Positions 6,913 through 62,451 of a DNA stretch of 64,000 nucleotides are shown here, one piece after another; position 1 is the stretch's first letter; each line of letters starts with the position of its first letter. Both the position numbers and the translations under genes were made by a program. The notes beneath the pieces were generated by a model, which saw nothing but the letters and a program-made list of their open reading frames with translations, was not told the origin of the DNA and made no database searches. The DNA is from a virus (lineage: Duplodnaviria; Caudoviricetes). The stretch spans positions 224,001 to 288,000 of IMG/VR virus record IMGVR_UViG_3300037722_000745. One strand, 5' to 3'.

Positions 6913-7863
6913 CTAACCCACATGCCGAAACACTACAAGACGACCTTCCCGCTCCGCCTGGCGAATGACCGGCGGCAGAGATTCTAAACTCAACCAAGCA
7001 TCCCCGCGGGTGCCGCCCGCAAAATCCGTGTCGTCGTAGTGTGCCGTCAGACAGATGCCCGCGTCGATGATCTGTAGAGTCCGAGCGTCGCATGTGCACT
7101 CGTAACGCCGCCCACCCATCCGGAACCGCACGACCATCTCGTTGCGTCGCGGGGCCTGCCGGTGATCGAGATACTCAGCCTCACCAACCGCGAGAGCCGC
7201 CCGAGCCGCGGTCCCGAAATCCTCTTGGGCCAACGCCCGCCGGCCAGCACCATCACCGAGCTGCTCCGCGATCTCCCGACGACGGGTTTCCCGCTGCCGT
7301 TCCTCTTCCTCACGCTGAAGGCGTTCCGCCAGCTCCCGCCGACGCCGCTCCGCCTCCAACCGCCGCCACCGCTCAAGCGTGAAGGCGACATCCAAAGCCG
7401 GCGACACCTCTCGGATATCAGCTAGCGTATCCTTGCCGTCCAGAAAGGCCGTCTGCACCTCGAACTCGGGCCCCAGAGGCATTTCTTGCTGGATGTAGAC
7501 CAACGGGCCGTCCTCGGACACGCGGCCCGCAGAGACCCGTACGAAGCGATCTAGGCCCGGTTCGATGAGATGGACCCGCTCCGTCTCGCTCTTAAAGGAG
7601 GCGAGCTTCCTTTGCGAAGCCGACACGAGCCGATCGCCGACCAGGTAGCCTACCTCTCGGTACTTGAGCTGCTCCGGCTCGGGATCACACACCTCCTGGA
7701 CCCGAGCCGTCCGACCGCCCACCGAGAACCGAACCCAGCCATGCTCCGCCGGCAGCCGACCCTCGATCACCCACCGACGTGGGCCCGACCGGAGGGACCT
7801 ACCCCCAATCCAAGGCGCGACAAGCGTCTCGCCTTCAGTCGCAAGTAAGTCTCTCCAACCCAT
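6913..7863 (-). CDS. conserved protein of the Ubl operon (coiled coil, Cys-containing C-terminal domain)
   Basis: Start MGWRDLL; charged coiled coil; RYECTCD...DAGICL; 5' part paralogous to 8330..8713. Confidence 0.75.
   Translation of the reverse strand: MGWRDLLATEGETLVAPWIGGRSLRSGPRRWVIEGRLPAEHGWVRFSVGGRTARVQEVCDPEPEQLKYREVGYLVGDRLVSASQRKLASFKSETERVHLIEPGLDRFVRVSAGRVSEDGPLVYIQQEMPLGPEFEVQTAFLDGKDTLADIREVSPALDVAFTLERWRRLEAERRRRELAERLQREEEERQRETRRREIAEQLGDGAGRRALAQEDFGTAARAALAVGEAEYLDHRQAPRRNEMVVRFRMGGRRYECTCDARTLQIIDAGICLTAHYDDTDFAGGTRGDAWLSLESLPPVIRQAEREGRLVVFRHVG
7583..7618. repeat. solitary CRISPR-repeat-like unit (family A) inside a CDS
   Basis: GTCTCGCTCTTAAAGGAGGCGAGCTTCCTTTGCGAA. 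Confidence 0.8.
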
Positions 7864-8713: not shown

Positions 8714-9642
8714 GACTCTCCAACCCTAATCTTCCAGGACTCCAAACTCTCACCACGTCTTCTACGTCGGGCCAACTTCAGTCTTGCTTCGGGGGTACTA
8801 AGAGCCTTCGTTATAGCCTCGCTATGTTTGGCTTTAACTTCGGGGATACTGAGTGTCTGGGCTATAGCCCTACCGCGTTTCTCTTTCTCCCCAGGTTGAG
8901 CCCATTGGCCTTTCATCCTACGACTCATAGCGGCCAGCCGTTCCAAAGTCATTGATGCTTGAACACCAATCTTATGGCGCTTCTTCACCTCAGGTAGGGC
9001 CAGTCTCTTAGCTGCCTCAATGCTTAGCTTCTTTCGCACCTCACTTGTATACCCGGCTTTTTGAAGCTTGATGCGTTGCCCCCTTTCCTCGGCCGAGTAC
9101 CCAGCCCAAGATGCCTTAAGACCCGCACTACGTTTCTCCTTCTCACCGGGTCTGGAGTAAACCTCCAACATCTTAGCTCTACGACGAGCTTTAGAATCAG
9201 GTTGACTGCAGGCCAAGATCAACGCTTCACGGTGCCTAGCCTTTACGTCGGGCCGTGCCATAGCTAACTTTACCCCAGCACTGTTCTTAGCTCGAACCTC
9301 CGGCCTATTCTGAGCCTCTTTCCCAGACACCGACATTTTCCGTCGAGTCTCTGCCGAAGGCTTCCCGTTTGACCCACCTGTCTTCAGATTGTACCCAAGC
9401 GGAGACAGAGAGGTGGCCACCCATTTAATTTCCAGCGCATCCAATTCCTCTTTCGAGGATGCCTCACCAACGACCTCAAACACGAATTTGTCTCGGCCAT
9501 ACTTGGCGATAGCCGCCCGCAAAGCGTGGCAATGGCTGTCAGTCCTGAAATGATGTGACCACCTCTCCGAAGGGTTGATGGTTTGACCGTGGTAACATTT
9601 TCCGCTGACCAAACAACGAATCCTGTAAACCAAACCGTACAC
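8710..9642 (-). CDS. GIY-YIG homing endonuclease with NUMOD3-like repeats
   Basis: GLVYRIRC...YHGQT...R...E..GYN; SAETRRKMS-type basic repeats. Confidence 0.9.
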   Translation of the reverse strand: MYGLVYRIRCLVSGKCYHGQTINPSERWSHHFRTDSHCHALRAAIAKYGRDKFVFEVVGEASSKEELDALEIKWVATSLSPLGYNLKTGGSNGKPSAETRRKMSVSGKEAQNRPEVRAKNSAGVKLAMARPDVKARHREALILACSQPDSKARRRAKMLEVYSRPGEKEKRSAGLKASWAGYSAEERGQRIKLQKAGYTSEVRKKLSIEAAKRLALPEVKKRHKIGVQASMTLERLAAMSRRMKGQWAQPGEKEKRGRAIAQTLSIPEVKAKHSEAITKALSTPEARLKLARRRRRGESLESWKIRVGES

Positions 9643-12136: not shown

Positions 12137-12336
12137 CCATCAGACTTCACCCCGGTTCTTCGTTTTCCATACGTTCTGTATCTGTGACACAAGGCGCACA
12201 CCACGTCGCATTTGGCAGCCTCTTCCTTGGTTCGTTTGAGAGAGCCCGTCCTGCTTGCCGAGCCGAGATCGAACGCCTTAGTTCTTGGATCGCGATGATC
12301 GAAGTCCATCGCCCAATACGGATGCGAATACCACGG
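12133..12336 (-). pseudogene. HNH endonuclease C-terminal fragment
   Basis: MDFDHRDP...EAAKCDVVCALCHRYRT; N-terminus replaced by tRNA sequence. Confidence 0.75.
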
Positions 12337-12377
12337 GTGTTCCCGAAACAGGCGTCCTACCAGTGGACTACACCCCG
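12337..12377 (-). pseudogene. tRNA-Pro(CGG) 5' half
   Basis: CGGGGTG, D-arm, CCTGT-TTCGGGA-ACA then abrupt switch to HNH sequence. Confidence 0.65.
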
Positions 12378-12378
12378 G

Positions 12379-12450
12379 TACGCGCAGAAGGATTTGAACC
12401 TTCATTTCTCGCTCATCAGACGAGGGTCCTAACCGTTGGACGATGCGCGC
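12379..12450 (-). tRNA. tRNA-Ile(GAT)
   Basis: Cloverleaf, loop CTGATGA. Confidence 0.85.
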
Positions 12451-14573: not shown

Positions 14574-14609
14574 GTCCCACTCTTGATGGAGGTGGGCTTC
14601 CCTTACCAT
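14574..14609. repeat. solitary CRISPR repeat (family A)
   Basis: First 28 nt identical to the array repeat at 19755. Confidence 0.9.
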
Positions 14610-16875: not shown

Positions 16876-16911
16876 GTCTCACTCTAGAGGGAGGTGAGCT
16901 TCCCTCGCAAC
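16876..16911. repeat. solitary CRISPR-repeat-like unit (family A)
   Basis: GTCTCACTCTAGAGGGAGGTGAGCTTCCCTCGCAAC, 4 nt upstream of tRNA-Arg(TCT). Confidence 0.85.
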
Positions 16912-18050: not shown

Positions 18051-18158
18051 CGTCTCGCCGCAGCGAGCAATGAGTGCATGACTACACCAAGCCAACAAGC
18101 GCTGATGGAAGCAGGCCAGTTGCGTGACTACGTAGTGGACCTGTCGGGAGTTGAACCC
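18051..18158. repeat. 108-bp cassette, copy 1 (family B hairpin, GGTGTA motif, tRNA-Ala 3' end)
   Basis: Matches 19438..19545 with 2 mismatches. Confidence 0.9.
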
Positions 18159-19355: not shown

Positions 19356-19391
19356 GTCTCGCTCTTAGGGGAGGCGAGCTTCCTTTGATCC
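19356..19391. repeat. solitary CRISPR-repeat-like unit (family A)
   Basis: GTCTCGCTCTTAGGGGAGGCGAGCTTCC, 14 nt upstream of tRNA-Leu(CAA). Confidence 0.85.
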
Positions 19392-19437: not shown

Positions 19438-19545
19438 CGTCTCGCCGCAGCGAGCAATGAGTGTATGACTACACCAAGCCAACAAGCGCTGATGGAAGCA
19501 GGCCAGTTGCGTGACTACGTGGTGGACCTGTCGGGAGTTGAACCC
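19438..19545. repeat. 108-bp cassette, copy 2
   Basis: See 18051..18158. Confidence 0.9.
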
Positions 19546-19595: not shown

Positions 19596-19676
19596 AGGTC
19601 CGAGGCGAATTGTCGACTCCGCGTCTCCAGCTTCCGTACGCAATAGCTGGCGCTCTAACACTGAGCTACTCGAACC
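19596..19676 (-). ncRNA. tRNA-like RNA with 14-nt anticodon loop
   Basis: 8-bp GGTTCGAG/CTCGGACC stem, normal D-arm, CCAGC-TATTGCGTACGGAA-GCTGG, altered T-loop. Confidence 0.55.
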
Positions 19677-19678
19677 AG

Positions 19679-19750
19679 CGGAGCCGAGGGGACTCGAACC
19701 CCCCTCACTGGCGTGACAAGCCAGCCGCCTCACCCGATGCGTACGGCTCC
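19679..19750 (-). tRNA. tRNA-Asp(GTC)
   Basis: GGAGCCG/CGGCTCC, loop TTGTCAC region, G73. Confidence 0.85.
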
Positions 19751-19754
19751 GTAA

Positions 19755-20009
19755 GTCCCACTCTTGATGGAGGTGGGCTTCCGTTGTGACCGTGCGGATT
19801 TCGGAGATGACGCTGAAGCCGTCATCGGTCCCACTCTTGATGGAGGTGGGCTTCCGTTGTGACTTCGCTCCGATCGCAATCCCGCAGGATCGCGACCAGC
19901 CGTCCCACTCTTGATGGAGGTGGGCTTCCGTTGCTGCCAGGCAGGACGGCTCGAAGTGGCTAAGATGATGTTGGTCCCACTCTTGATGGAGGTGGGCTTC
20001 CGTTGCTGC
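19755..20009 (-). CRISPR. CRISPR mini-array, 4 x 36-nt repeats, 3 spacers (37, 38, 36 nt)
   Basis: Repeat GTCCCACTCTTGATGGAGGTGGGCTTCCGTTG(TGA/CTG)C at 19755, 19828, 19902, 19974; orientation inferred from leader position and tRNA strand. Confidence 0.95.
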
Positions 20010-20170
20010 AGTGCGCTCAAAAAGACCTAAAATTTCCAAAGAGCTGAGAGCCGGATTGCGAGAGCCTCTGCAAACTCCCGCTAAATCCGACTCCATGGAG
20101 AGTACTACACTGTTCACAGAGAGCGCAAGACCCTAAATTCATTGTCTTGCGAGCGATCCCCGGGCTCCAG
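20010..20170 (-). promoter_or_regulatory. putative CRISPR leader
   Basis: Non-coding, AT-richer, near-IHF-consensus ATTCATTGTCTTG. Confidence 0.55.
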
Positions 20171-20356
20171 GCGTCACCGAGGCTCTCGCGTTCCGATGCC
20201 GTCCAACAAGGAAACTCCACGTCCCGGCGAAGAGTTGAGAGCATGGGCAGTACCGTGCCCACAAGGGCCAGTCCTCTCGCTCAACCCCGCGAAGTCGAGC
20301 TGTTTCAGGAATGTGACACGGGTTTTGGTTGATGCTGGCCAAACATGACTACCCAG

Positions 20357-20432
20357 TGGAGCCGGCGGGGATCGAACCCGCCGCAAAGCCGCATTGCAAG
20401 TGCAGCTCGCCCCCGCCAACCGATACGGCTGA
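20357..20432 (-). tRNA. tRNA-Ala(TGC)-like, first two acceptor pairs broken
   Basis: Loop CTTGCAA, T-arm normal, TCAGCCG/CGGCTCC. Confidence 0.6.
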
Positions 20433-20440
20433 GGGGTATC

Positions 20441-20833
20441 TCACCGAAGAGATGACGGCTCATAAAGTGTCAATAGCTCCTTTGCCCAATCTACGAGGTC
20501 CGACACCCTCGCGCCGGTAGGTTGCGGACTTCGCCACAACTCCAGGTTGCACGGTCTGTTGTCGTCCCTAACCCCGTTCTTGTGGTGTACCGTCTCACCC
20601 GGCAAGAGATAGCGGCCAAGGACTTCCTCCATCACAAGGATGTGCTCAAACACGTACGGACCGCTTGTAGCCCTAGGGTGCAGCGGAACTCGCCGCATCA
20701 CGTATCGAATCGGATCGCCGCACCCAAGGCAGGGTACCTTTGGGAGAGATCGCCGCCGACACATCGGGCATTTCCGATGTCTGCTACTTGGTGTGAAAAG
20801 TCTGCAACACGAGCTACAAGTTTTGACAGCCAT
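20441..20833 (-). CDS. HNH homing-type endonuclease with N-terminal Zn fingers (apparent internal deletion)
   Basis: YVFEHILVME..LGRYL...ETVHHKNGVRDDNRPCNLELW. Confidence 0.85.
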   Translation of the reverse strand: MAVKTCSSCCRLFTPSSRHRKCPMCRRRSLPKVPCLGCGDPIRYVMRRVPLHPRATSGPYVFEHILVMEEVLGRYLLPGETVHHKNGVRDDNRPCNLELWRSPQPTGARVSDLVDWAKELLTLYEPSSLR

Positions 20834-20896
20834 TAGTCACCGAGACAGTCTCGGCGTGCAGGGTACACCACGTGCAGGTTGCCATCTTCGTACCCT

Positions 20897-21295
20897 TGGA
20901 CTCGGTGGGAATCGAACCCACGTCCTAGAAAGCTATCGAACAGCGTCTACGTGCGTAGCGTGACTTCGGACTCGGTTAAGGTCGTGCCCATGCCTCACGC
21001 CGGCTTCCACCTGGGGCGTGACTGGTTTTCCAGTCTTGCCTCCACCACCGATCTAGCGACCTAAGGTCTTGCGACCCGTTTCCCACAGCCAATCGGACTC
21101 TGTGGTGCAGCCCTGCGTTTACTTACGCCGCTCGAAATCGAAGCAGGGAATCTACCCCGAGCGACGGCTCAGGCAGCCTGAGCAAAGCCGTTATAGTTGG
21201 CTTTTCTTGTTTGGTCGGCTTGATAACCCGGCCTGCTGACCAACCGGGGCACGCTGCTGCTCGAATTACCTCCCAGTCGAAACCTTTACGAGCCC
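20897..21295 (-). ncRNA. ssrA: tmRNA
   Basis: GGGCTCG/CGAGTCC acceptor with G3:U70, GGTTTCGAC 5' motif, T-arm, tag ORF ANYNGFAQAA-stop at 21201..21169. Confidence 0.95.
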
Positions 21296-21324
21296 TAAAT
21301 CTGTCATCGCATACACCAAAAGTC

Positions 21325-21399
21325 TGGAGCCCCTTCCCGGAATCGAACCGAGTTATCTGGTTTACAAGACCAGCGCATCACCAACTATGCTTAAGGGGC
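21325..21399 (-). tRNA. tRNA-Thr(TGT)
   Basis: Cloverleaf, loop CTTGTAA, CCA. Confidence 0.9.
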
Positions 21400-21605
21400 T
21401 TAGCTACGCCAGCAGAAAACGCTAGAGTTCTCACACCGGTCCGCACTCTAGCAGCGGCCCTACATACCCCGGGCCGCCAGCCTAGCTTGGCAGCCCACCA
21501 GGGGCCTGGTGTCAGGCGGGACGCCGTCCGAATACCTCAGAGCTTTTGACCGGGCTAGAGAGCCCAAGATGAGGGTCATCGTTCAGCATCGACCGGTGGA
21601 GAAAA

Positions 21606-21644
21606 TGGTAGCGACGGAGGGAGTCGTCTCGCCTCAGCGAGCAA
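21606..21644. repeat. family B hairpin (21626-21644) fused to a tRNA T-loop-to-CCA fragment (21606-21625)
   Basis: Minus strand TTGCTCGCTGAGGCGAGA-CGACT-CCCTC-CGTCGCT-ACCA. Confidence 0.8.
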
Positions 21645-21659
21645 TCAAGTTGGCGGCCA

Positions 21660-21763
21660 CCGCCAAAAGCCCCGTAAAGTTTAGCCCGCGTTCGAGATGA
21701 GCGACCTGGTTAGCGATTGCTTGTTTTCCGAACAAGTGCGTTTGCCAGTTACGCCACAAAGGC
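21660..21763 (-). ncRNA. 5' part of a giant-variable-region tRNA-like RNA (left boundary approximate)
   Basis: GCCTTTG, Leu-type D-arm, CTTGT-TCGGAAA-ACAAG, AACCAGGT motif shared with copy 1. Confidence 0.55.
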
Positions 21764-21768
21764 CGGAC

Positions 21769-21828
21769 GGCCTTCGACGGGACTCGAACCCGCATATGCA
21801 TGTAAGATCGTTCTGGCGGAACGCGAGC
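21769..21828 (-). ncRNA. 3' part of a giant-variable-region tRNA-like RNA
   Basis: CCGCCAG..CTTACATGC motif, T-arm, CGAAGGC acceptor strand. Confidence 0.6.
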
Positions 21829-21961
21829 TGGTGGGGAGTCTTGGAGTCGAACCAAGTTTGCTTGTAAGCGCCGCTGGCGGCTCCCTTGCGGGAGCGAGAG
21901 GCAGTGCTGGAGTATCGCTTTCGATTTACCGTCGAAATAGAGGCCAACCCTCCTACTCCCC
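21829..21961 (-). ncRNA. tRNA-like RNA with giant variable region (copy 2)
   Basis: GGGGAGT/ACTCCCC acceptor, ACCA end, two 5' hairpins, GCAA hairpin, CTTACAAGC, T-arm. Confidence 0.75.
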
Positions 21962-22068
21962 AGATGCCGGTGCTCACCACACCACCGTCGTCAACGCAAG
22001 GGACCGGCGCCCCTGTGAAGCTCTCTGGCGATGATGCAGTACCCTCTCTAATACACCAAAGAAGGCGG

Positions 22069-22140
22069 AGCAGGTAGAGGGAATCGAACCCTCGCCTCCA
22101 GCTTGGCAAGCTGGCATCCTACCGACTGGACGATACCTGC
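22069..22140 (-). tRNA. tRNA-Gly(GCC)
   Basis: Cloverleaf, loop TTGCCAA. Confidence 0.9.
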
Positions 22141-22141
22141 A

Positions 22142-22216
22142 TGGTCGGGGTGGCGGGAGTCGAACCCGCGACCTTCTGTCCCCCAGACAGACGCCCTTCC
22201 ACTGAGCTACACCCCG
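22142..22216 (-). tRNA. tRNA-Pro(GGG)
   Basis: Cloverleaf, loop CTGGGGG, CCA. Confidence 0.9.
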
Positions 22217-22236
22217 TTGTTTGGTTGCGGGAGCCG

Positions 22237-22272
22237 GTCTCGCTCTTTCAGGTGGCGAGCTACCACGGTTTT
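22237..22272. repeat. CRISPR-repeat-like unit (family A variant) between duplicated tRNA-fMet 3' ends
   Basis: GTCTCGCTCTTTCAGGTGGCGAGCTACC; GTTGCGGGAGCCGG at 22224 and 22281. Confidence 0.8.
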
Positions 22273-22281
22273 TCAAACCAG

Positions 22282-22353
22282 TTGCGGGAGCCGGAATCGA
22301 ACCGACGAGGCTTGGGTTATGAGCCCGAGTTGAGGGCCAACACTCTTCCCGCG
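22282..22353 (-). tRNA. tRNA-fMet(CAT), degenerate D-arm
   Basis: C1:A72 mismatch, GGG/CCC in anticodon stem, loop CTCATAA. Confidence 0.75.
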
Positions 22354-22354
22354 G

Positions 22355-22427
22355 TGGCCAGAGAGGGAATCGAACCCCCGACGCCTTCATCTTCAGCGAA
22401 GCGCTCTACCAACTGAGCTATCTGGCC
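22355..22427 (-). tRNA. tRNA-Phe(GAA)
   Basis: Cloverleaf, loop CTGAAGA. Confidence 0.9.
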
Positions 22428-22431
22428 GTTG

Positions 22432-22472
22432 TGGTGGGTCCTCTCGGGATCGAACCGAGTTCTCCGATTTTT
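22432..22472 (-). pseudogene. tRNA 3' half (anticodon loop to CCA)
   Basis: AAAA-ATCGG-AGAA-CTCGG-TTCGATC-CCGAG-AGGACCC-ACCA directly after a family A repeat. Confidence 0.75.
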
Positions 22473-22508
22473 GTCTCACTCTTGTAGGGGGTGAGCTTCC
22501 CTTACTCC
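22473..22508. repeat. solitary CRISPR-repeat-like unit (family A)
   Basis: GTCTCACTCTTGTAGGGGGTGAGCTTCC. Confidence 0.85.
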
Positions 22509-22535
22509 CCACTGGCCTACTAGCCAACCACTCAG

Positions 22536-22607
22536 TGCTCCTACGGGGAATCGAACCCCGGCCGCCGGGGTGAAAACCCAGCATCCTGACCACTAGACGA
22601 TAGGAGC
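22536..22607 (-). tRNA. tRNA-Glu(TTC)
   Basis: Cloverleaf, loop TTTTCAC. Confidence 0.85.
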
Positions 22608-22609
22608 GT

Positions 22610-22685
22610 TGGCGTCCCTACAGAGATTTGAACTCTGGTTTCCAGATTGAGAATCTGGCGTCCTGGCCGACTAGACGATAGGGAC
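22610..22685 (-). tRNA. tRNA-Glu(CTC)
   Basis: Cloverleaf, loop TTCTCAA, CCA. Confidence 0.9.
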
Positions 22686-22686
22686 G

Positions 22687-22762
22687 TGGAGCCCGCGATC
22701 GGGATCGAACCGACTACCTCCTGCGTACGAAGCAGGCGCCCTACCTTCAGGGCCTCACGGGC
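22687..22762 (-). tRNA. tRNA-Thr(CGT)
   Basis: Cloverleaf, loop TTCGTAC, CCA. Confidence 0.85.
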
Positions 22763-22764
22763 AA

Positions 22765-22824
22765 AGCGTGGCGAGCCTTCGGGGCCTCTTACACAGATCG
22801 CCGTACAGACGATGCGACCACACT
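22765..22824 (-). ncRNA. possible D-armless tRNA-like RNA (GTA loop)
   Basis: AGTGTGG/CCACGCT stem, ATCGT-CTGTACG-GCGAT arm, non-canonical T-arm. Confidence 0.35.
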
Positions 22825-22826
22825 AG

Positions 22827-22895
22827 CAGGCCGGCAGGGAATCGAACCCTGTCCTACGGATTTGGAGTCCGTTTGGCTTCCTTAGCCCCCGACCT
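22827..22895 (-). tRNA. tRNA-Trp(CCA)
   Basis: AGGTCGG/CCGGCCT, loop CTCCAAA, short D-arm. Confidence 0.8.
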
Positions 22896-22940
22896 AGATT
22901 TATCTCGCTCTTCCGCCAGCCAAGGCATACACGCATTGCT

Positions 22941-22976
22941 GTCTCGCTCTTGAAGGAGGCGAGCTTCCTTTGCGAG
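22941..22976. repeat. solitary CRISPR-repeat-like unit (family A)
   Basis: GTCTCGCTCTTGAAGGAGGCGAGCTTCCTTTGCGAG. Confidence 0.85.
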
Positions 22977-23008
22977 AGTCCTGCCACACCGTCTGATTAA
23001 ACGCCTCT

Positions 23009-23084
23009 TGGCTCCAGGGGAGGGACTCGAACCCCCATCTTTCCGGTTAACAGCCGGACGCATTACCATTAGTGCTACCCTGGA
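23009..23084 (-). tRNA. tRNA-Asn(GTT)
   Basis: Cloverleaf, loop CTGTTAA, CCA. Confidence 0.9.
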
Positions 23085-23310
23085 ATATGACAGGTGGGGA
23101 CCCCGAAGCCTTAGGAGCCGCAAGGCCCCCACCATCGGCGAGATGATCCCCGCTACAGAGCCGCTCCCCGAAGGTCGCGGGTACCGCGTGCGAGGCTACA
23201 TTCGCCGCACCGAATTCCTATTCAGTTGTCATAGAGCTGTAGGTGCTTCCACGGGACCTGTGTCCCGAAGTGCTTTCGCCCCCTCCATTGGAGGCGCTCT
23301 TTCGCACCAG

Positions 23311-23382
23311 TGGGTGGCATGGGAATCGAACCCACCTGTGCCTGATTAAGAGTCAGGTGCATCGCCTTGATGCTAACCACCC
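23311..23382 (-). tRNA. tRNA-Lys(CTT)
   Basis: Cloverleaf, loop CTCTTAA. Confidence 0.85.
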
Positions 23383-23588
23383 GCTGTCTTCGCCTGGATG
23401 AGAGCCAACAGCTCGTCGAGCAACTCATCGTCCGCGTAGAGAAGTCGGACTAGGATCTGTTTCTGTGTCACCTTGCCTTTCGCGTCCTTCGTGTGGCGGA
23501 CCACGCAGCCGTTGTCGAAGTAGACCACCTGCTCGGTGAGTCGATCTTCATCCGCGTTGTCCAGTCGTCGTTCGTTCAGAACCCTCAT
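23373..23588 (-). CDS. hypothetical protein
   Basis: ORF between tRNA-Lys genes. Confidence 0.6.
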   Translation of the reverse strand: MRVLNERRLDNADEDRLTEQVVYFDNGCVVRHTKDAKGKVTQKQILVRLLYADDELLDELLALIQAKTAGG

Positions 23589-23595
23589 GCGTCGT

Positions 23596-23672
23596 TGGTG
23601 GGGCCGACAGGAATCGAACCTGCAACCGTCGAGTTAAAAGCTCGCTGCTCTGCCTGGTTGAGCTACGGCCCC
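23596..23672 (-). tRNA. tRNA-Lys(TTT)
   Basis: Cloverleaf, loop CTTTTAA, CCA. Confidence 0.9.
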
Positions 23673-23747
23673 AGAAGGGTCTTCGGAGTCGTAGCTACGT
23701 TTGAGTCGAGAAGTCATCGTTCGCTTACATTCATCGTTCGCTGACTT

Positions 23748-23829
23748 TGGTGGGAGTGGAGGGAATCGAACCCCCTGCGCCTTTCGACAACCGGTTTACA
23801 GCCAGTCTCCCGTCCATCGGGTCACTCCC
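23748..23829 (-). tRNA. tRNA-Tyr(GTA)
   Basis: Loop CTGTAAA, variable arm, CCA. Confidence 0.85.
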
Positions 23830-23917
23830 ATGAGTTGGTTGGAGAGTGAGCCTCGATAGCTTTCGTGGATGGGCTTTGTACGTGGGCTGATCATGTGAAA
23901 TCCTTGGTCCAGAAACG

Positions 23918-23949
23918 AAAAAAGCCACCTGGGTTTTCCCTAGGCGGCC
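23918..23949 (-). terminator. putative intrinsic terminator upstream of the tRNA array
   Basis: GCCGCCTAGGG-AAAA-CCCAGGTGGC followed by T6. Confidence 0.6.
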
Positions 23950-24331
23950 TTCGTCATGCACAGAGTGTGAGTCAACGAGAGTCCGCCTAAGTATCCGCCT
24001 CCGGGTTCTGATTGCGGCGCGTAAACGCGGAGGCTTCGACATGGGTCGTAGGCTTAATGGCGCCTGCATAACCGAGTCTCCCAAAGCCCAGTCCCAGGAC
24101 ACGCCACGACCCCGACAAGGCTTTGCCTTGCTCGAAGCGTGCTGGTGTTGAAGTCCGGGACATCATGTCGATCACTCTGGTTTGGACTGTCGTTCTTTGG
24201 GGCCGTTGTCGGTGGGTTATGAACCCAACACGAGCTGACCGTTCTACCTTCCTACGGTCTACAAGAGGAAAGTGCAACCGTCCTCGCGTCGAATTCGGAT
24301 CTTTTTCTCCGAACCTCGAGAACTCAACCAC

Positions 24332-24940
24332 TTACGGTGTGATGCCTACTTGAAGGTATGTGAGGGTACCGAGAAAATCTGGGTTGCCTTCACCAAACCC
24401 AGAGCGAAGCGTGTTGAGTCGGTCTGCCAACCACCCAAAAGTGGGATCTGCATCCCACGTGCCCGGGTAAGATACCCCCTTGAAGTCCGTGAAGCGGATG
24501 TACTCCCCGCTAGCAACCGGAGCTGTCGAGTCCCACGCCAGACGGATCTGCAAACGCGTCCCCTCCGCGATGGCATCCCCTGAGCCCGCCAACGAGTTGA
24601 CCGCCGTACTACCTCCGGTGCTGTTGAAGATAGCACACTCGGGCCGGTTGGAGTCGTCCATGTCGATCCGGATCTTGCCTCCATTGCCGACCAACTCCAT
24701 CACCGTGCTCCCCGCCCCCAACGCTGGGGCGACAACCTCAACCTCGATAATTCCTCGGATCCCAGGATGATCGATCGCAGTAGCGCCTACTCGCCTAGTT
24801 GTCACCAACAACCCCGGAAGCGACCTGAAGGTGGTCCCTGGAGGGGTGTTCAGGCTGTTAGACCCAGAACTAACGAGTGCTGGATCCATCACTAGGCCCG
24901 TCGGGTAGAGAATGTGGGAGTGGTCGGGGATGTTTGGCAT
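24332..24940 (-). CDS. hypothetical beta-rich (structural-like) protein
   Basis: Start MPNIPD; Gly/Ser/Thr-rich composition. Confidence 0.65.
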   Translation of the reverse strand: MPNIPDHSHILYPTGLVMDPALVSSGSNSLNTPPGTTFRSLPGLLVTTRRVGATAIDHPGIRGIIEVEVVAPALGAGSTVMELVGNGGKIRIDMDDSNRPECAIFNSTGGSTAVNSLAGSGDAIAEGTRLQIRLAWDSTAPVASGEYIRFTDFKGVSYPGTWDADPTFGWLADRLNTLRSGFGEGNPDFLGTLTYLQVGITP

Positions 24941-25018
24941 AATCGGCTGAGCCTCGTAATTAGGAGCAAGACGGTATACCAAGCCATCCTCAAAAGTTCT
25001 TTTGCTATCGCGTAGGCA

Positions 25019-25636
25019 ATGGGACCAATATCCGCCGACGTGCAACGGATGCTGCGCCAAGCCTCCGAGAAGACCGCCACGCAGCCTTTCGTCTGCGAAG
25101 TTTTCGAAGATCCTCAGTGGAATAGCTTCGTCGAGCTGTGGGCACCTAGGATCTACACCTTCATCCGTGAAGCCCTAGGCAGTTATGCCACCGAGCCTCG
25201 TCCAACCATCATCCCCCTAGACGCCGGATTTCACATAGCCGGAGCCAACGCGAGCTTCAACATCGTGACCGGCCAGATCCAGCTCACCCCCGCCATGGCC
25301 GGCAACCCCGGAGTCATTCTAGAGAAACTCACCCACGAGATGGTTCATGGGTCGCTAGCGGCATTCCCAGAAGGTGACCCCTTCTATGAAGAGGGTATGG
25401 CTGCGGACTACGGCACCTGGATCTTAGCTCACGCTCCCGTCTGGGAGCCATACCGTGACATGATGATCAAAGCCGCCGCCGACAACATCCGCAACCGTCG
25501 AGATCGAGCCATGGCGACGGACTCCGACTACGATCGTAAAAGGTGGGCCGGAGGCGTCTACGCAATGACAGCGTTCGGGCCCCACCTCATCACCCGGCTG
25601 AGACAGAAGAAAGAGTGTGGTGATCTGACATGGTGA
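25019..25636 (+). CDS. zincin-like metallopeptidase
   Basis: LTHEMVH plus downstream EEG (HEXXH...E). Confidence 0.7.
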   Translation: MGPISADVQRMLRQASEKTATQPFVCEVFEDPQWNSFVELWAPRIYTFIREALGSYATEPRPTIIPLDAGFHIAGANASFNIVTGQIQLTPAMAGNPGVILEKLTHEMVHGSLAAFPEGDPFYEEGMAADYGTWILAHAPVWEPYRDMMIKAAADNIRNRRDRAMATDSDYDRKRWAGGVYAMTAFGPHLITRLRQKKECGDLTW

Positions 25637-25640
25637 TCTG

Positions 25641-25838
25641 TCACTTGCGGCCTCTATTAGCCTTGAGGCGCTCGAGCTTCGCAATCGACCGACGTAGCCA
25701 TCGCGGTGGAGTGTTCCCACTCTTGGCAATAGCTTTGAGGGTCTCCTCATACTCTCTCCGACTGTTGCAGCCGTAGGAACGATCCCGATTGTCCATGTGT
25801 AGGCCGTTAAATTTCGATAAGATACCCTTGCTCATCAC
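25641..25838 (-). CDS. hypothetical protein
   Basis: ORF with 4-bp overlap to upstream gene. Confidence 0.45.
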   Translation of the reverse strand: MMSKGILSKFNGLHMDNRDRSYGCNSRREYEETLKAIAKSGNTPPRWLRRSIAKLERLKANRGRK

Positions 25839-26188
25839 AACACCTTCCCGATCCAGGATTGCTTGTACGCCCAGTAGTCACACAAGGCTCTGTAGCCGTC
25901 CTCCGTGCAAGGATCGGACAGCGATCCAACCTCCTCCTTGTCGATAAACCGCAACACCCAGTACATCATCGCAGCCACCGGATCACCACGTTCTTCGTAC
26001 GCTCGGGTCCGTTCAACACAGAACTGATACCACCAGCGTGGGTTCGGTGACGGGACAAACGGCTCACGAGGCTCAACCTCTGGCTCAGATTTGGTTGTAC
26101 GCCATCGATCCTCGTCCCGAGAGCGACGCCTCTTGCGCTTCCTCTTCGCGACCTTGCGCTGCTGCCAGCGCTCTGCCCAAGTGCTCAT
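25835..26188 (-). CDS. hypothetical protein
   Basis: ORF with 4-bp overlaps. Confidence 0.6.
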   Translation of the reverse strand: MSTWAERWQQRKVAKRKRKRRRSRDEDRWRTTKSEPEVEPREPFVPSPNPRWWYQFCVERTRAYEERGDPVAAMMYWVLRFIDKEEVGSLSDPCTEDGYRALCDYWAYKQSWIGKVL

Positions 26189-26715
26189 TCGCCCTCCAAC
26201 ATCGCCGCCAACTCCAAACTGTCCCGAAACACGGGCTCACCTCCATCTGGAAGCTCCTCCAGAGTCGACAACAAAGCCCTCCACTGGCCTTTGGGTGGTT
26301 CGAAGGCTAAAAGCCCCTTCTCAACCACCCACCCTCGAATCTCGGGTAACGTAACCTTTGCCAAAAGATACGCAAGCTTCCTAAGATCGACAACATGCCC
26401 GAGCAAAACACCCTGATGTTCATAGTCAACATCACCAAGAGGAATCAACTTCGATGGTGCTTCCCCAGCCCACTCTTTCAAATCCTCAACCACGAACACC
26501 TTTGGCTCAGAAGGTGGACCCGTCAACAAGTCCTCCAGGCGCGATTTTGGGTACCCTTTCCCCTGCTTAGGACCCGCCGCCTTCACCCCAAACAGGATAT
26601 AGCTGTCTGTCGCCACTGACCACGTAATCCGTTCAATCTTAATAGAGAACGGGGCCGCGTGCCAAGGTTTGGACCCGGACGCAAATCGCATGAGCTGTGA
26701 GAGCAAAACACTCAT
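26185..26715 (-). CDS. hypothetical protein
   Basis: 176-aa ORF. Confidence 0.65.
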   Translation of the reverse strand: MSVLLSQLMRFASGSKPWHAAPFSIKIERITWSVATDSYILFGVKAAGPKQGKGYPKSRLEDLLTGPPSEPKVFVVEDLKEWAGEAPSKLIPLGDVDYEHQGVLLGHVVDLRKLAYLLAKVTLPEIRGWVVEKGLLAFEPPKGQWRALLSTLEELPDGGEPVFRDSLELAAMLEGE

Positions 26716-26953
26716 CTGGTTTCTGTACCTGATCCAGAATTCCTCTGGGAAGATCTACACCGGCATCTCACCAGACCCTGAAAAGAGGGTGCAAGTCCAC
26801 AACACCGGGAAAGGTGCCAAAGCAACTCGTGCCGGTCGACCATGGAGGTTGGTCTATACAGAGTGCTGCGGCTCCAAAGGTCAAGCGTTGCGACGAGAAC
26901 TAGCCGTCAAGAGGTTGTCTCGAGATCAGAAACTAGAACTGATCGAGACCTAA
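26690..26953 (+). CDS. GIY-YIG nuclease (UPF0213/SLX1-like)
   Basis: FLYLI...YTGIS.DPEKRVQVHNTGKGAK.T...RPWRLVY.E...ALRRE. Confidence 0.9.
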   Translation: MSCESKTLIWFLYLIQNSSGKIYTGISPDPEKRVQVHNTGKGAKATRAGRPWRLVYTECCGSKGQALRRELAVKRLSRDQKLELIET

Positions 26954-27624
26954 TCTGCCTGAGGAAGCTTCCCCACAAGCTCGCGAATACGCTCGGCCTC
27001 CTCAGCTTCCCGTAGCTTCGCCTTCAATTTAGTTGAACGCGCCAAGTGCGATGGCATTGGCTTGTCGGCTTCCATGCCCCATGCATCCCAACCAGGTGGA
27101 CACCCTCTAGCAAACAACTCAATGCGTGAGGTATCCCCAAAAAGCTCCTCAATACGCTCCCGAACCTCTGGCGGCTTGCTAGAGTGCCCCGGTGGTCGTG
27201 GGGCGAACACATACTGGCTCTGGCTCTCGGTCCTCAATGGCAGCGTGCGACCCCGCTTCTGTGTTGAGCCTATGAGCACGATCTCGCCTAGCTGTTTCAC
27301 AAAACTCGGCCGCACCCCCTGACCTTCGATGACCTTGCCGTCCTTCGTCGTCTTGATCCAGAAATAGGCGATACCGCGGTAGTAGAAGCCCCACTGCCGG
27401 ATGAGGTCGATCGCCTCTGCGAGCTTCGGCCCGGTCGCCCACATGAACAAGACTCCCTTACCATCGATGAGCTGGCGGACTGGCAAAGCTTCAAGTTCCT
27501 CGAAGGACATCATGTTGTAATGTTTGCCAGCCGCCTGGTCCTTATCCGGGTCGCCATAGTATTCCCATGGCACGTCAATGTGTATAACCCGATAGACCGA
27601 CGGGAGAGTATCTAAGGGCCTCAT
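26950..27624 (-). CDS. MT-A70-family adenine methyltransferase
   Basis: IHIDVPWEY, LFMWAT, WGF.Y, HSSKP.E, IELFAR..GWDAWG. Confidence 0.9.
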   Translation of the reverse strand: MRPLDTLPSVYRVIHIDVPWEYYGDPDKDQAAGKHYNMMSFEELEALPVRQLIDGKGVLFMWATGPKLAEAIDLIRQWGFYYRGIAYFWIKTTKDGKVIEGQGVRPSFVKQLGEIVLIGSTQKRGRTLPLRTESQSQYVFAPRPPGHSSKPPEVRERIEELFGDTSRIELFARGCPPGWDAWGMEADKPMPSHLARSTKLKAKLREAEEAERIRELVGKLPQAD

Positions 27625-27773
27625 CGGAACACCCGGTAACCTCGACCCTCAAGAAAACCTACAGCGAATTCTTCAAAGTCGGCGTCGGTTAAATCACCTA
27701 AAGCTATGTTGATTCGATTACACACCACACGAACGTTGTCCTGCGTGTAACCTAGAGTCGAGTCAATACCCAC
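27621..27773 (-). pseudogene. HNH-like endonuclease C-terminal remnant
   Basis: IDSTLGYTQDNVRVVCNRINIAL; under the ORF-track size limit. Confidence 0.6.
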
Positions 27774-27777
27774 GTAA

Positions 27778-27905
27778 CTACGACCTGCATGCAGGGCTGC
27801 GACGCAGGGTCGTCCCCGATCCGCAGTAGGGATCGAGCGTCACCCCACCGCGGGGCGTGACGAGTTTGACGAGCCGCTCCATCAGCGCCAACGGCTTCAT
27901 GGTCG
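27778..27905 (-). pseudogene. partial duplicate of the methyltransferase C-terminus
   Basis: PTMKPLALMERLVKLVTPRGGVTLDPYCGSGTT versus PTMKSLSLMEWLVKLVTPRGGTTLDPYCGTGTT. Confidence 0.8.
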
Positions 27906-27973
27906 GGACTCCCAACAAGGGCCCGCAGAAACGACCTTGTAGCGGCCCGCCAGCGTCACAAGGGAGGGCGGGT

Positions 27974-30900
27974 TCATTCCTCCGGGACCAGTTCTTCGAG
28001 ACGAGATGAGATGTCCGCGAGGTCGTCATCAAATGCTTTGTCTCCCGACTTCGTGCGGAGTGCCTTCAGGCGAGCTTCGGCCAGGGCATGGAAGTCTGGA
28101 TCCTTCTCGATTCCGACGTACTGACAGCCCGCCTGAATAGCCGCTACACAGGTTGTCCCTGTTCCGCAGTACGGATCGAGCGTTGTCCCACCTCGGGGCG
28201 TAACGAGCTTGACCAACCATTCCATGAGGGAGAGAGATTTCATCGTGGGGTGAGGGTTCTTCGCTCCCTTCATCCAACCTTCACGCTCTTGCTTGCTGAC
28301 CTTCGCTGTGTAGAAGAATGGAGCCTCAGGCTCGAACTGACCGAAGTAGCGTGAAGCCCCTCCTCCCTCACCCACTACCGATGATGGTTTTGACCCATCA
28401 GCAGTTGTGACTGCCCCGTGGTAGCCCATACCCTTTTGACATTCACCGGAGAACCATCCCGGGGCTCTAAAACCGCTCTGCTTGTCCAACGCCTTGACCG
28501 GACACCCCTCGACACACTCGTAGACGGGGATCTCCTCCATCCCATCAGCATCACCTTGCGGCTCTGACGTGTAAGAGTGTCCGGCCCCATCACCGAACGG
28601 CTTCATCCCGTCATCGAAGCGGTTGATGACGGGGGCCTTGACCCGCTTCGAACCTACGACCTCACACTCGGTCGAATGAATCATCAGAGTGTTAGCTGGC
28701 CAACGCCCATGATTGTGGACCTCCGTCTCCACACCCCCGACCATCCCCTTCACCATCGTGTTGCGAGCTTTGCCCGGCGAACTGCTGTTGGTCCGCGTCG
28801 TGTGGCCGATCCGCGTCGCATCGATATTCAGCCCGCCCGTACCGTGCTTCAGAACGTTCTGAGCAACAGTAGCCTCCGAAAGAGGCTTACGGAACACTAA
28901 TATCGGTTCCCACGAGGGTTTAAGAGCCGTGCCAAGGCCATCAAATTGTGAAGCGGCTTCGGAGTCCACCCCTGCCTTCAACACCGCTTTCTTCACATTT
29001 AAACTCTTGGGAAAACCAGAGTTACCTGTGATGAACACCCTACCATTGCGTCGAGCTACGAACGCCCCAGTCTCCACGCGAACACACCACACCTCCCCGT
29101 CATAGTCTTTCAGATGGGTCGCATGGAGATGTCTGGACTGTAATTCCGTAGTCCGATTGTCGTGCAACGAAACACAACGCTTCTTCGCGTTGTCCCGACC
29201 TTGCCACCCGATCATGTGGGCCAGGACCTGAAACCACTCACGGTCAACACCGTCTTTTTGGTAGAATTGCTTCTGGCCTACAGATCCATCCCCGTCCATA
29301 GCTGCGGATAGAAACGCCCTCTTCTCATCAAGGGTCATCCGCCACAACAGGTCGTAAGTTGGATGTTTGCCGGGCAAGATCTCTCGAACACTCAGAGCCG
29401 GTTCGCCCGAGAAGAACCACGTGTATTCTGTGTACTCCCGGCCCTTGTATGTGCGTACCCTCTCGTACTTTTTGAAGTCGGGAGCGAACTTCTGAGTCAA
29501 CCGATCAATCTCAACCACATGGTCGGGATTGACACTGCTCTGGTAAATGCGAACACCCGTCCAGGAGTTATCGAATCCGCCCTCAGTCCAGATCCACGCC
29601 AAGAAAGCAGCGTAGTCTTCCCCGCCAATCCCCGCCCCATCGTGGTACCCAGCCAATGGTAGCTTGATTGCTTGCCACCGATTGATCTCAGCAGCCTCCA
29701 TCGGAACCCACTCTTCCTCGAACCACTTGCGACGGGTTTTTGCTACCTGTCTACGGATAGCGTGTCGCTTGAATACGCGATGGTTAGGGGTCAGTAGCTG
29801 ATCGGTGTTGTCGTTACGAAAGCACACCATCGACCCCTGGTAAGGGGCTCGGAACACTTCTAAGACAGGACGTAATCCAATCCCCTCTGTGGCCGGGTCC
29901 CACGTGGCTACCGACAAACCTTCTTTGAGTTGGTCCGGTCCCACCCACCCGTGCTCAGTGAGAATCTCACTATCCTCACTGAGACACCCGTAAACCCACT
30001 GGAACACCTGGACGCTGAACTGCGCTGCTACGGTATCTCGACACTCAAAACCCGCGAATCGCAGTCCCATCGAGATTAAGTCGAACGTGCGGGTGGAGCC
30101 AAAGCTCAAGAGGTGCCCGCCGGGCTTGAGGGCGCGGTAGCATTCCCTCCATACGGCAACGGGCGGGATTTCCCAGGTATGACCCATAAAATCTTTATGT
30201 GTCTTGTGTGGTGAATGGAAACGATCCAACAGAACCCTTGGCACCGCAACGTTCAACGTAATTGCCCCGCCTGCGGGCAACCCTACCTTGCAAGTCAGAA
30301 AGCGCTTGAGAAGCGTCGTCAGACTACCTGCTCCAGACGCTGTTCCTATACACTCCGAGGAAGTCAGAAGAAGTCGAGCGTCGGCTTGGTCTGCGGGGTC
30401 TGCAAAAACGAGTTCACCAGAAACCCGAGCCACATCAAGGGTAAGCACGGCGCAAACTTCTGTAGCCCTATCTGTCACTATAAAGGGCGCTCCCTCGGGC
30501 TCTCCAAACGGATTGTGTACAAGCCGTACAACCATACGAAACAAGGCCGGGCCAACCGAAGTAAAGCAGCCGCACACCTCTACGCATCCGGTAAAGGTTT
30601 GGCTTTCCCGAAGACAGAACTGGCGGTCCTTGAGCGCCTCAAAACCCAAGGAATCAACGTTGTCCACCAGAAGGTTGTCGAACTTCCCGACAGGGCCTAT
30701 GCGGTTGACTTCTTTTTCCCCACTAGAGCCGACGGGGGTTTGATCATCGAATTGGATAACCCCGGACGACATGATCGGGGGTTGATGCACGCTGACTTTG
30801 AACGAGACAAGATCTTGAGCGAATTGGGGTTCGAGGTCGTCCGCTTGTGGGACAACGGACGACCGGAGAATGCTATTCGCGCAGTGCTGGACACCCTTCT

Positions 30901-31081
30901 TCAATGGCCCGAGAGACGGAGCGCCTCCAAGGTACCGGATGATGTCCTCTGCGGTAGGTTCTCTAGAAGATAGACCATACGGGGGGTCAGTGACGATCGA
31001 GTCAACGCTGGAGTCAGGGAGCGTCTTCAGGACTTCGAGGCAGTCGCCCAGGTGGACCTGGTTAGGTTTCAGAGCTGGCAT
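27974..31081 (-). CDS. N6A/N4C DNA methyltransferase carrying an intein and a second in-frame insertion
   Basis: DPPY at N-terminus, LDPYCGTGTT at C-terminus, LKPGG and YG-SGFPKS motifs. Confidence 0.9.
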   Translation of the reverse strand: MPALKPNQVHLGDCLEVLKTLPDSSVDSIVTDPPYGLSSREPTAEDIIRYLGGAPSLGPLKKGVQHCANSILRSSVVPQADDLEPQFAQDLVSFKVSVHQPPIMSSGVIQFDDQTPVGSSGEKEVNRIGPVGKFDNLLVDNVDSLGFEALKDRQFCLRESQTFTGCVEVCGCFTSVGPALFRMVVRLVHNPFGEPEGAPFIVTDRATEVCAVLTLDVARVSGELVFADPADQADARLLLTSSECIGTASGAGSLTTLLKRFLTCKVGLPAGGAITLNVAVPRVLLDRFHSPHKTHKDFMGHTWEIPPVAVWRECYRALKPGGHLLSFGSTRTFDLISMGLRFAGFECRDTVAAQFSVQVFQWVYGCLSEDSEILTEHGWVGPDQLKEGLSVATWDPATEGIGLRPVLEVFRAPYQGSMVCFRNDNTDQLLTPNHRVFKRHAIRRQVAKTRRKWFEEEWVPMEAAEINRWQAIKLPLAGYHDGAGIGGEDYAAFLAWIWTEGGFDNSWTGVRIYQSSVNPDHVVEIDRLTQKFAPDFKKYERVRTYKGREYTEYTWFFSGEPALSVREILPGKHPTYDLLWRMTLDEKRAFLSAAMDGDGSVGQKQFYQKDGVDREWFQVLAHMIGWQGRDNAKKRCVSLHDNRTTELQSRHLHATHLKDYDGEVWCVRVETGAFVARRNGRVFITGNSGFPKSLNVKKAVLKAGVDSEAASQFDGLGTALKPSWEPILVFRKPLSEATVAQNVLKHGTGGLNIDATRIGHTTRTNSSSPGKARNTMVKGMVGGVETEVHNHGRWPANTLMIHSTECEVVGSKRVKAPVINRFDDGMKPFGDGAGHSYTSEPQGDADGMEEIPVYECVEGCPVKALDKQSGFRAPGWFSGECQKGMGYHGAVTTADGSKPSSVVGEGGGASRYFGQFEPEAPFFYTAKVSKQEREGWMKGAKNPHPTMKSLSLMEWLVKLVTPRGGTTLDPYCGTGTTCVAAIQAGCQYVGIEKDPDFHALAEARLKALRTKSGDKAFDDDLADISSRLEELVPEE
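29021..29986 (-). mobile_element. intein (322 aa) with LAGLIDADG-type endonuclease
   Basis: YG|CLSEDSEILTEHGW ... VWCVRVETGAFVARRNGRVFITGN|S; internal AMDGDGS. Confidence 0.92.
30215..30973 (+). CDS. Zn-finger plus DUF559/Vsr-like endonuclease nested antisense inside the methyltransferase
   Basis: CPAC/CSRRC/CGVC/CSPIC fingers; YAVDFF..LIIELD...H...DFERDKILSELGFEVVRLW. Confidence 0.85.
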   Translation: METIQQNPWHRNVQRNCPACGQPYLASQKALEKRRQTTCSRRCSYTLRGSQKKSSVGLVCGVCKNEFTRNPSHIKGKHGANFCSPICHYKGRSLGLSKRIVYKPYNHTKQGRANRSKAAAHLYASGKGLAFPKTELAVLERLKTQGINVVHQKVVELPDRAYAVDFFFPTRADGGLIIELDNPGRHDRGLMHADFERDKILSELGFEVVRLWDNGRPENAIRAVLDTLLQWPERRSASKVPDDVLCGRFSRR

Positions 31082-31108
31082 AGATCCTCCGGTAAGGCTC
31101 TATGCCAT

Positions 31109-62327: not shown

Positions 62328-62415
62328 GGCTTTGGATCGTATTACAACCTAACGGAGCCAAAATTTAAAGAACCGGTGTAGTGTTGTCTGGCCGATGCCG
62401 CAGCGAAAGGGGCCC

Positions 62416-62451
62416 CCGCAAGGGAAGCTCACCTCCCTAAAGAGTGAGACT
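62416..62451. repeat. solitary CRISPR-repeat-like unit (family A), opposite orientation
   Basis: CCCGCAAGGGAAGCTCACCTCCCTAAAGAGTGAGAC between a GGTGTAGT motif (62375) and the protease gene. Confidence 0.85.

Follow-up and report, generated by a model that had tools for sequence, protein, structure and literature searches.

The small CRISPR array considered here is situated among the tRNA genes of a huge phage and is read, with moderate confidence, as a working satellite array of a type V-M-like (Cas12m-like) system and not as an array of the Cas12j encoded by the same phage; its explanation as an RNA decoy, a Cas12j array or a relic is less likely. The source is a 323,174-bp phage record of IMG/VR with a CheckV completeness of 68%, and the stretch analysed (the window, 64,000 nt) corresponds to bases 224001-288000 of this record; positions outside it are given as genome positions. 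Three classes of repeats, named A, B and C, occur in this one genome, at least two of them with no recognisable effector in the record, and the array among the tRNAs belongs to class C.

The array is composed of four direct repeats of 36 nt on the minus strand, identical over 32 nt and spaced 73, 74 and 72 nt from start to start, with three unique spacers of 37, 38 and 36 nt (Table 1), as had been recognised when the DNA was read from its letters only. It agrees with the generic definition of a CRISPR array, that is at least three near-identical repeats of 23-50 nt with unique spacers of similar length. A degenerate 28-nt handle pattern has 12 matches in the window compared to 0.00 expected from 100 shuffles, and no Rfam family matches the repeats. 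On the minus strand every repeat ends in a 3' hairpin (5-bp stem, bulged C, two pairs and 6-nt loop) with a terminal AC. Type V repeats are built in this way, thus the direction of transcription of the array is that of the tRNAs. The sequence-only reading also stated that the two repeats nearest to position 20010 begin with GCAGCAAC and the other two with GTCACAAC (minus strand), which proved correct, and saw in it two phases of acquisition or two source arrays, about which the GCAG/GTCA difference, confined to repeat positions 2-4, says little. The difference is probably neutral because the first seven nucleotides of the 36-nt crRNA scaffold of Cas12m2 are disordered (PMC10442227). An independent assembly of the locus is given by Logan contig L092 (SRR12682375), 100% identical over 11,850 nt to window 19980-31829. 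This contig breaks off within the first repeat of the mini-array, so it holds no array with which spacers could be compared across samples, and a contig look-up for the same comparison with the nearer small ORF gave no match. The same phage was found in at least three public runs, and proteins identical to its own occur in SRR12682375, SRR33174183 and SRR12683306.

Table 1. Class C array, its tRNA neighbours and lone repeat units (window positions unless marked as genome positions)
Feature	Position	Strand	Remarks
tRNA-Ala(TGC)	20356..20432	-	upstream neighbour; ARAGORN
Leader-like gene-free stretch	20010..20355	-	from tRNA-Ala to repeat 1; weak terminator-like hairpin 20232-20215
Repeat 1	19974..20009	-	leader-proximal; starts GCAGCAAC; covariance model 53.7 bits
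Spacer 3	19938..19973	-	leader-proximal; 36 nt; unstructured
Repeat 2	19902..19937	-	starts GCAGCAAC
Spacer 2	19864..19901	-	38 nt; 13-bp hairpin, z -3.8
Repeat 3	19828..19863	-	starts GTCACAAC
Spacer 1	19791..19827	-	distal; 37 nt; 7-bp hairpin
Repeat 4	19755..19790	-	terminal; starts GTCACAAC; 4 nt ahead of tRNA-Asp
tRNA-Asp(GTC)	19678..19750	-	directly downstream of array; ARAGORN; Rfam 47 bits
Lone class C	19356..19391	-	stem CTCGC/GCGAG; 14 nt before tRNA-Leu
Lone class C	16876..16911	-	stem CTCAC/GTGAG; 4 nt before tRNA-Arg(TCT)
Lone class C	14574..14609	-	39 nt after tRNA-Gln
Lone class C	22473..22508	-	between tRNA-Glu and tRNA-Phe
Lone class C	22941..22976	-	between tRNA-Asn and tRNA-Trp
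Diverged class C	22237..22264	-	20 nt before tRNA-Pro(GGG)
Lone class C	7583..7618	-	in frame inside ORF 6913-7932
Lone class C	62415..62450	+	opposite strand; start of ORF 62444-63154
Lone class C	genome 49877		directly before ribosome-binding site and ATG
Lone class C	genome 195664		
Decayed class C copies	genome 73399, 202553, 296035, 297913		
Lone class B (Cas12j-type)	19439..19474	-	in tandem with class C 19356; between tRNA-Ala and tRNA-Leu
Lone class B	18052..18087	-	between tRNA-Thr and tRNA-Ser
Lone class B	21626..21661	-	

The tRNA cluster extends over window 455-23829 and comprises a tmRNA and 43 tRNA genes; all of them share the minus strand and the orientation of the array. On this strand tRNA-Ala is followed by 346 nt free of genes, by the four repeats with their three spacers and, after 4 nt, by tRNA-Asp, the short distance to which (tRNA-Asp at 19678-19750, last repeat from 19755) had been noted before and was confirmed. 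A leader had been proposed as well, and the 346-nt gene-free stretch does exist, but a scan which does not cover phage promoters found no sigma-70-like promoter in 20010-20355. Read-through from the tRNA operon into the array is possible, and since the array lies on the tRNA strand and has no detectable promoter of its own, it is most simply regarded as part of the tRNA precursor. An extra or aberrant tRNA may lie between tRNA-Ala and tRNA-Asp, at window 19597-19675 (minus strand), where ARAGORN predicts nothing but the tRNA model of Rfam reaches 33.7 bits against a gathering score of 29. Homing-endonuclease-like genes are dispersed in the cluster, among them a GIY-YIG gene at window 8710-9642 and an HNH_3 endonuclease gene at 20441-20764 (minus strand; Pfam match on the identical L092) just upstream of tRNA-Ala and the mini-array.

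The array had been described as Cas-less, and within the 64-kb window no cas genes were found, nor does the record hold a cognate one. This description has to be corrected for the genome as a whole, because a 718-aa ORF that lies 3.5 kb beyond the window, at 23.3 kb from the mini-array, encodes Cas12j/CasPhi (match to CasPhi-2, PDB 7LYS, at E 2.3e-159). Cas genes elsewhere on the genome had been expected to turn the array into a normal locus, and cas12j is indeed present; its own array, however, has a different repeat. This class B array (7 repeats, genome 217705-218179) begins 128 nt downstream of the cas12j ORF, and its repeat shows a GATTGC motif, a 5-bp stem, a 4-nt loop and a final AC, all common to the Cas12j-2 repeat published in PMC11048056. 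The class C repeat is identical to the class B repeat at 14/36 positions and to the Cas12j-2 repeat at 17/36, compared to 29/36 for the array of a related metagenome contig (L014); its loop has 11 nt in place of 4 nt and GATTGC is missing, so class C does not resemble the type V-J repeats, whether cas12j-adjacent or published. As the repeat of the Cas12j array is different, Cas12j is probably not the partner of the class C array, judging from the repeat sequences. It could still be imagined that the locus is a secondary array of the phage's own Cas12j, as the gene is carried by the same genome 23 kb away, both repeats have 36 nt with a 5-bp stem and AC, and three lone class C handles share the stem CTCGC/GCGAG with the Cas12j repeat. 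This is hardly credible, given the low identity, the different loop and the absent GATTGC, the occurrence of separate Cas12j-type lone handles beside those of class C, and the fact that the class C build tracks Cas12m-like genes in related phages.

The association with Cas12m-like genes was recognised in JGI metagenome contigs, in which the handle pattern has a few true relatives (L014, L019/L030, L031, L046); the remaining matches were rejected, as they fall by chance into GC-rich coding DNA. The order of elements in L014/L078 is: class C array (seven or eight repeats), T5orf172/MUG113 gene (172 aa), gene of a 789-aa protein named P0001, and three lone handles. L014 is syntenic with the present genome at 110.6-119.7 kb (50-70% amino-acid identity) and therefore derives from a related huge phage. 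P0001 is matched by the PADLOC Cas12u1 model at E 1e-44 and by PDB Cas12m chains at E 4e-24, and a profile of 24 family members matches PDB Cas12m at E 1e-76 over nearly the full chain length. The four best fold matches of the AlphaFold model of P0001 (pLDDT 83, pTM 0.77) are all Cas12m2 or GoCas12m, with Cas12f and CasPhi far behind. The Cas12m-like family counts 2364 representatives at E <= 0.001, and its proteins in the related phages have 700-790 aa. The RuvC-I aspartate is replaced in all 24 aligned members, mostly by N and in P0001 by R, which fits the published mode of Cas12m as a protein that binds DNA and does not cut it (PMC10442227, PMC11013384); by its sequence the family would thus fit a non-cutting DNA binder.

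In all five loci with enough flank (L078, L082, L089, L090, L091) an array adjoins the Cas12m-like gene, being located directly downstream of it in L082, L089, L090 and L091. The repeats of L078, L082, L089 and L091 have 36 nt, a 5-bp stem, an 11-nt loop and a final AC, while those of L090 are harder to parse; the repeat of the window is of the same kind as those which adjoin genes of the Cas12m family. From this association in the relatives it is concluded that class C is, by its sequence features, a Cas12m-like repeat. The T5orf172/MUG113 gene directly precedes the Cas12m-like gene in 8/8 loci examined, the contigs concerned being L078 (9460-12403), L079, L080, L081, L082, L083, L084, L089, L090 and L091. 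We take T5orf172/MUG113 to be a GIY-YIG-related domain (Pfam clans), and the two genes, conserved as a pair, could encode an RNA-guided DNA binder and, separately, a nuclease; a literature search returned no paper naming both T5orf172 and Cas12. In L078 the three lone handles stand close together (12270-12403) and reach over the final ~100 nt of the Cas12m-like ORF, which recalls the omega-RNA of TnpB over the 3' end of tnpB; the model of P0001 has a disordered C-terminus at the corresponding residues 749-789 (pLDDT below 50). Upstream of the Cas12m-like locus, at a distance of about 3 kb, the same contig carries a 335-aa gene with a weak AcrVA2-like Pfam match (L078:6084-7091).

In the 323-kb record itself no Cas12m-like gene was found with the P0001 protein, the PADLOC model or an HMM of the 56-member family in six frames; these searches returned, apart from Cas12j at noise level, only the zinc ribbon of a 282-aa TnpB (genome 292.8-293.7 kb). 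This TnpB was considered as a reader of the handles and rejected as an ordinary IS605 OrfB. At the site syntenic to the Cas12m locus of the relative this genome has a class A array. It is judged somewhat more probable than not that the effector gene lies on the roughly one third of the genome that is missing from the record. Such a location is favoured by the lone handles standing before the phage's own genes, by the lone handles of a relative which does carry the effector, and by the lone handles of its own Cas12j which this phage keeps. The absence of detectable Cas5d/Cas7 for the class A arrays also implies that cas genes may well be located on this third. A main locus there becomes less plausible in view of the JGI metagenome contigs, in which no other array with the exact class C repeat of the window was found. 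Supply of the effector in trans by a co-infecting relative is a possibility to which a clearly smaller weight is given.

The last possibility can be extended to a true orphan acting in conflicts between phages: the phage would have no Cas12m-like gene of its own, and its RNAs would load into the Cas12m-like protein of a co-infecting relative and redirect it, possibly against the DNA of this relative. Mini-arrays of archaeal viruses use the host Cas against related viruses. Such an explanation is rather unlikely, even though the effector is absent from the record, relatives carry the effector and handles identical at all 18 invariant positions, a class A array occupies the place of the Cas12m locus of the relative, and the metagenome contigs hold no further array of the exact repeat. 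Against it, the spacers have no match to the available pieces of the relatives (up to 22 kb of genomes probably larger than 300 kb), the record is only 68% complete, and one would expect a phage which relies on lone handles before its genes to have the gene of their reader as well. Should the array work only in trans, it would be a clear candidate for the hijacking of a CRISPR effector by one phage against another.

The partner had at first been sought in the host. It was right that the record encodes no cognate cas gene, but the proposed borrowed host Cas gives way to the Cas12m-like family of related huge phages. One genome each of 185,579 prokaryote species was searched with the handle pattern, and no true match was found, so that the borrowing of host Cas gains no support and the repeat names no host. 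All 28 matches obtained were single, 26 of them had no fully paired stem and none had the conserved 5' context; they were rejected as host repeats, as they look like chance matches in GC-rich coding DNA. No match to the handle pattern was found in IMG/VR either.

Beside the array the genome contains lone copies of the same unit, which were searched for over the genome with a covariance model built from 16 units and with pattern searches. At least ten lone class C loci were found besides the four array repeats, seven of them inside the tRNA cluster (Table 1). They correspond to solitary repeat units, i.e. lone repeats in a mobile element which are remote from cas genes and similar to a known CRISPR repeat; the array does not. 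The tRNA span makes up 7.2% of the genome and holds 7/10 loci (binomial P ~1e-6, with the excess of non-coding DNA in the span left in). The gap between a handle and the following tRNA is 4 nt in two cases (terminal repeat/tRNA-Asp and 16876/tRNA-Arg) and 14, 20, 45 and 45 nt in the others. Across 16 aligned units 18 of the 36 positions are invariant, and the stem occurs in the variants CCCAC/GTGGG, CTCAC/GTGAG and CTCGC/GCGAG, with 97% of cells paired, compensatory changes in two pairs, and a covariation score reached by none of 500 shuffles. A candidate pseudoknot of the conserved upstream GGA with the loop (columns 7-11 x 20-24) is 81% paired, its core pairs never varying.

These data bear on a further reading, in which the locus would be the decaying remnant of a lost and possibly mobile T5orf172-Cas12m-like module that has no present function. 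The missing effector, the clearly decayed copies at genome 73399, 296035 and 297913, and the homing-endonuclease-like genes nearby (the GIY-YIG and HNH genes mentioned above) would be in line with decay. The four array repeats are nevertheless identical over 32 nt, and in twelve units none of the 18 invariant positions is altered and compensatory changes have kept the stems fully paired, which argues for selection and makes a remnant very improbable.

It was also considered that the handles and the array, highly expressed from the tRNA cluster, are RNA decoys comparable to Racrs which titrate out the Cas12m-like effectors of rival phages; with three stem variants a wider range of effectors would be blocked. 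Viral solitary repeat units can be RNA anti-CRISPRs, including against type V-A (PMC10651486). In the present phage the lone handles are of three stem types, trimming by RNase P would leave the handles 4 and 14 nt before tRNAs nearly guide-less, and no effector is found in the record. Decoys are, however, distinctly unlikely: the end of the effector gene also carries three lone handles in the relative that encodes it, the present phage has lone handles of its own Cas12j type, for which self-decoys make little sense, and a regular array with three full-length spacers would be unnecessary.

On phage transcripts the lone handles between tRNAs and before genes probably mark sites at which the Cas12m-like protein binds or cuts. 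They were also considered as guides for self-regulation, which was rejected: a second, long copy of the downstream sequence exists for no handle but that at 7583, where a paralogous gene segment accounts for it, and no TTN-like PAM is seen beside the copy. A comparison of window 7518-7650 with 8359-8490 (minus strand) indicates that handle 7583-7618 replaces a 42-nt stretch of the paralogous segment ~840 nt upstream, the ~65 nt after the handle being nearly identical in both copies. Lone copies are known from classes A, B and C, therefore dispersed handles are a property of all three repeat classes. Those of class B (window 18052, 19439 and 21626; genome 11450-11485) form a subfamily of their own: they have an additional hairpin (GTGTA...TACAC) on the 5' side, and GAYTCC is conserved behind the unit.

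If the locus is a working satellite array of a Cas12m-like system, it would be transcribed as part of the long tRNA precursor. The effector would then cleave this precursor within every repeat, in the way Cas12m processes its pre-crRNA, and the cut of RNase P at the 5' end of tRNA-Asp would trim the last unit to a handle with 4 nt. These processing steps are predicted from the established activities of RNase P and of the effector. Three crRNAs may in this way guide a Cas12m-like protein, by which target DNA would be bound and its transcription blocked with no cutting; competing phages or other mobile DNA are the likely targets. It is known that Cas12m processes its own pre-crRNA by a cut within or upstream of the repeat scaffold, that its guide has ~17-20 nt, and that it silences by binding DNA without cutting (PMC10442227, PMC11013384). 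A broader and much more tentative proposal is that the whole tRNA cluster is a natural polycistronic tRNA-crRNA platform, in which guides and guide-less handles of both the Cas12j and the Cas12m-like type would be released by RNase P, RNase Z and the RNA cutting of the effectors, the handles being co-opted as punctuation marks that effectors read on phage transcripts.

The spacers themselves gave no matches. That none is found in the window had been observed earlier and holds for the rest of the 323-kb genome, where the longest chance match has 12 nt. No match was found in the related contigs and fetched loci, in INPHARED phages or in PLSDB plasmids, and the protospacers which the sequence-only reading hoped to find in IMG/VR did not appear with 22-mers from the 5' end of each spacer. 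Within this limited search space the spacers thus match neither related viruses nor mobile DNA, and with no protospacer found no PAM can be inferred. The spacers of the relatives, in turn, have no match in this genome. Spacer 2 is peculiar in containing a near-perfect 13-bp palindrome (-20.8 kcal/mol, z -3.8, 0/300 shuffles); P <= 0.05 for folding is reached by none of 35 class A and class B spacers. Such a palindrome is atypical for an acquired spacer, and the target of spacer 2 could be a palindromic site.

In comparison to the type V-M proteins MmCas12m2, GoCas12m and MsCas12m (PMC10442227, PMC11013384), the present system has in common a 36-nt repeat whose stem closes 2 nt from the 3' end, bases upstream and in the loop whose conservation would be compatible with a candidate pseudoknot, no cas1 or cas2 nearby, and, in the relatives, an effector that corresponds by sequence and fold and has lost the first RuvC aspartate. 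It differs in the size of the relatives' proteins (700-790 aa vs ~600 aa), in the T5orf172/MUG113 gene ahead of them and in their location in huge phages, while the array of the present genome stands alone in a tRNA cluster with no effector in the record. Viral mini-arrays and orphan arrays (PMC11656645) are likewise short (the present one has three spacers), with no adjacent cas or adaptation genes and a Cas proposed to be encoded elsewhere; here, in contrast, the repeat corresponds to arrays of related phages and to no host genome, the array is located among tRNAs, and two other repeat classes are present. Huge phages are known to carry compact arrays with no adaptation genes, new type V-U variants and CasPhi (Al-Shayeb et al., PMC7162821). 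The CasPhi/Cas12j systems of huge phages (PMC7162821, PMC11048056) are similar in that a CasPhi-2-like gene and a compact array occur on the same genome and the 36-nt repeats end in a hairpin with AC, but the window repeat is of another sequence class (14/36, 11-nt loop).

The Racr solitary repeats (PMC10651486) and crRNA-like regulators (10.1101/2023.03.03.530964; 10.1101/2024.10.29.618823) are also lone repeats of phages away from cas genes, some directly before genes. In the present phage at least ten copies of one class and two other classes are found, mostly between tRNAs, with compensatory stem variants, and in a related phage they coexist with the effector. Viral mini-arrays, solitary repeat units, Racrs and crRNA-like regulators are thus already known. 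What appears to be new is the assignment of an orphan phage array to a Cas12m-like clade constantly paired with a T5orf172 gene, the position of an array inside a tRNA cluster 4 nt before a tRNA, and the interleaving of lone handles of two type V families with tRNAs. Orphan viral arrays and lone repeats are rarely given a partner; here the partner family can be named, namely Cas12m-like DNA binders, and Cas12j can be set aside. If it is true that effectors read handles on phage transcripts, CRISPR would have a second role in the phage, in RNA processing or regulation, and the tRNA-flanked layout would be the natural counterpart of a widely used engineering design. Polycistronic tRNA-gRNA arrays were reportedly engineered by Xie et al. 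(2015, PNAS). They share with the present locus guide RNAs flanked by tRNAs and hence releasable by RNase P and RNase Z; the locus is different in being natural, in closely abutting a tRNA only at the 3' side of the array, and in its processing, which is putative.

The third repeat class of the genome, class A, ends in ATTGAAAC and forms four arrays (genome 1-258, 61334-61811, 64596-65525 and 120213-121203), accompanied by five lone copies at genome 10712, 223772, 285970 (window 61970), 286131 (window 62131) and 322376. A type I-C Cas5d/Cas7 was considered as the partner of these arrays and ruled out in the record, where none was detected. An 813-aa ORF between two of them (genome 61939-64380) has no PADLOC, Pfam or PDB match, and no relative of Cas12j was found in IMG/VR. 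One class A spacer, at genome 61665, matches the DNA of the phage itself perfectly over 29 nt (60221-60249), and a two-repeat mini-array of the Cas12j type is present at genome 194554-194659.
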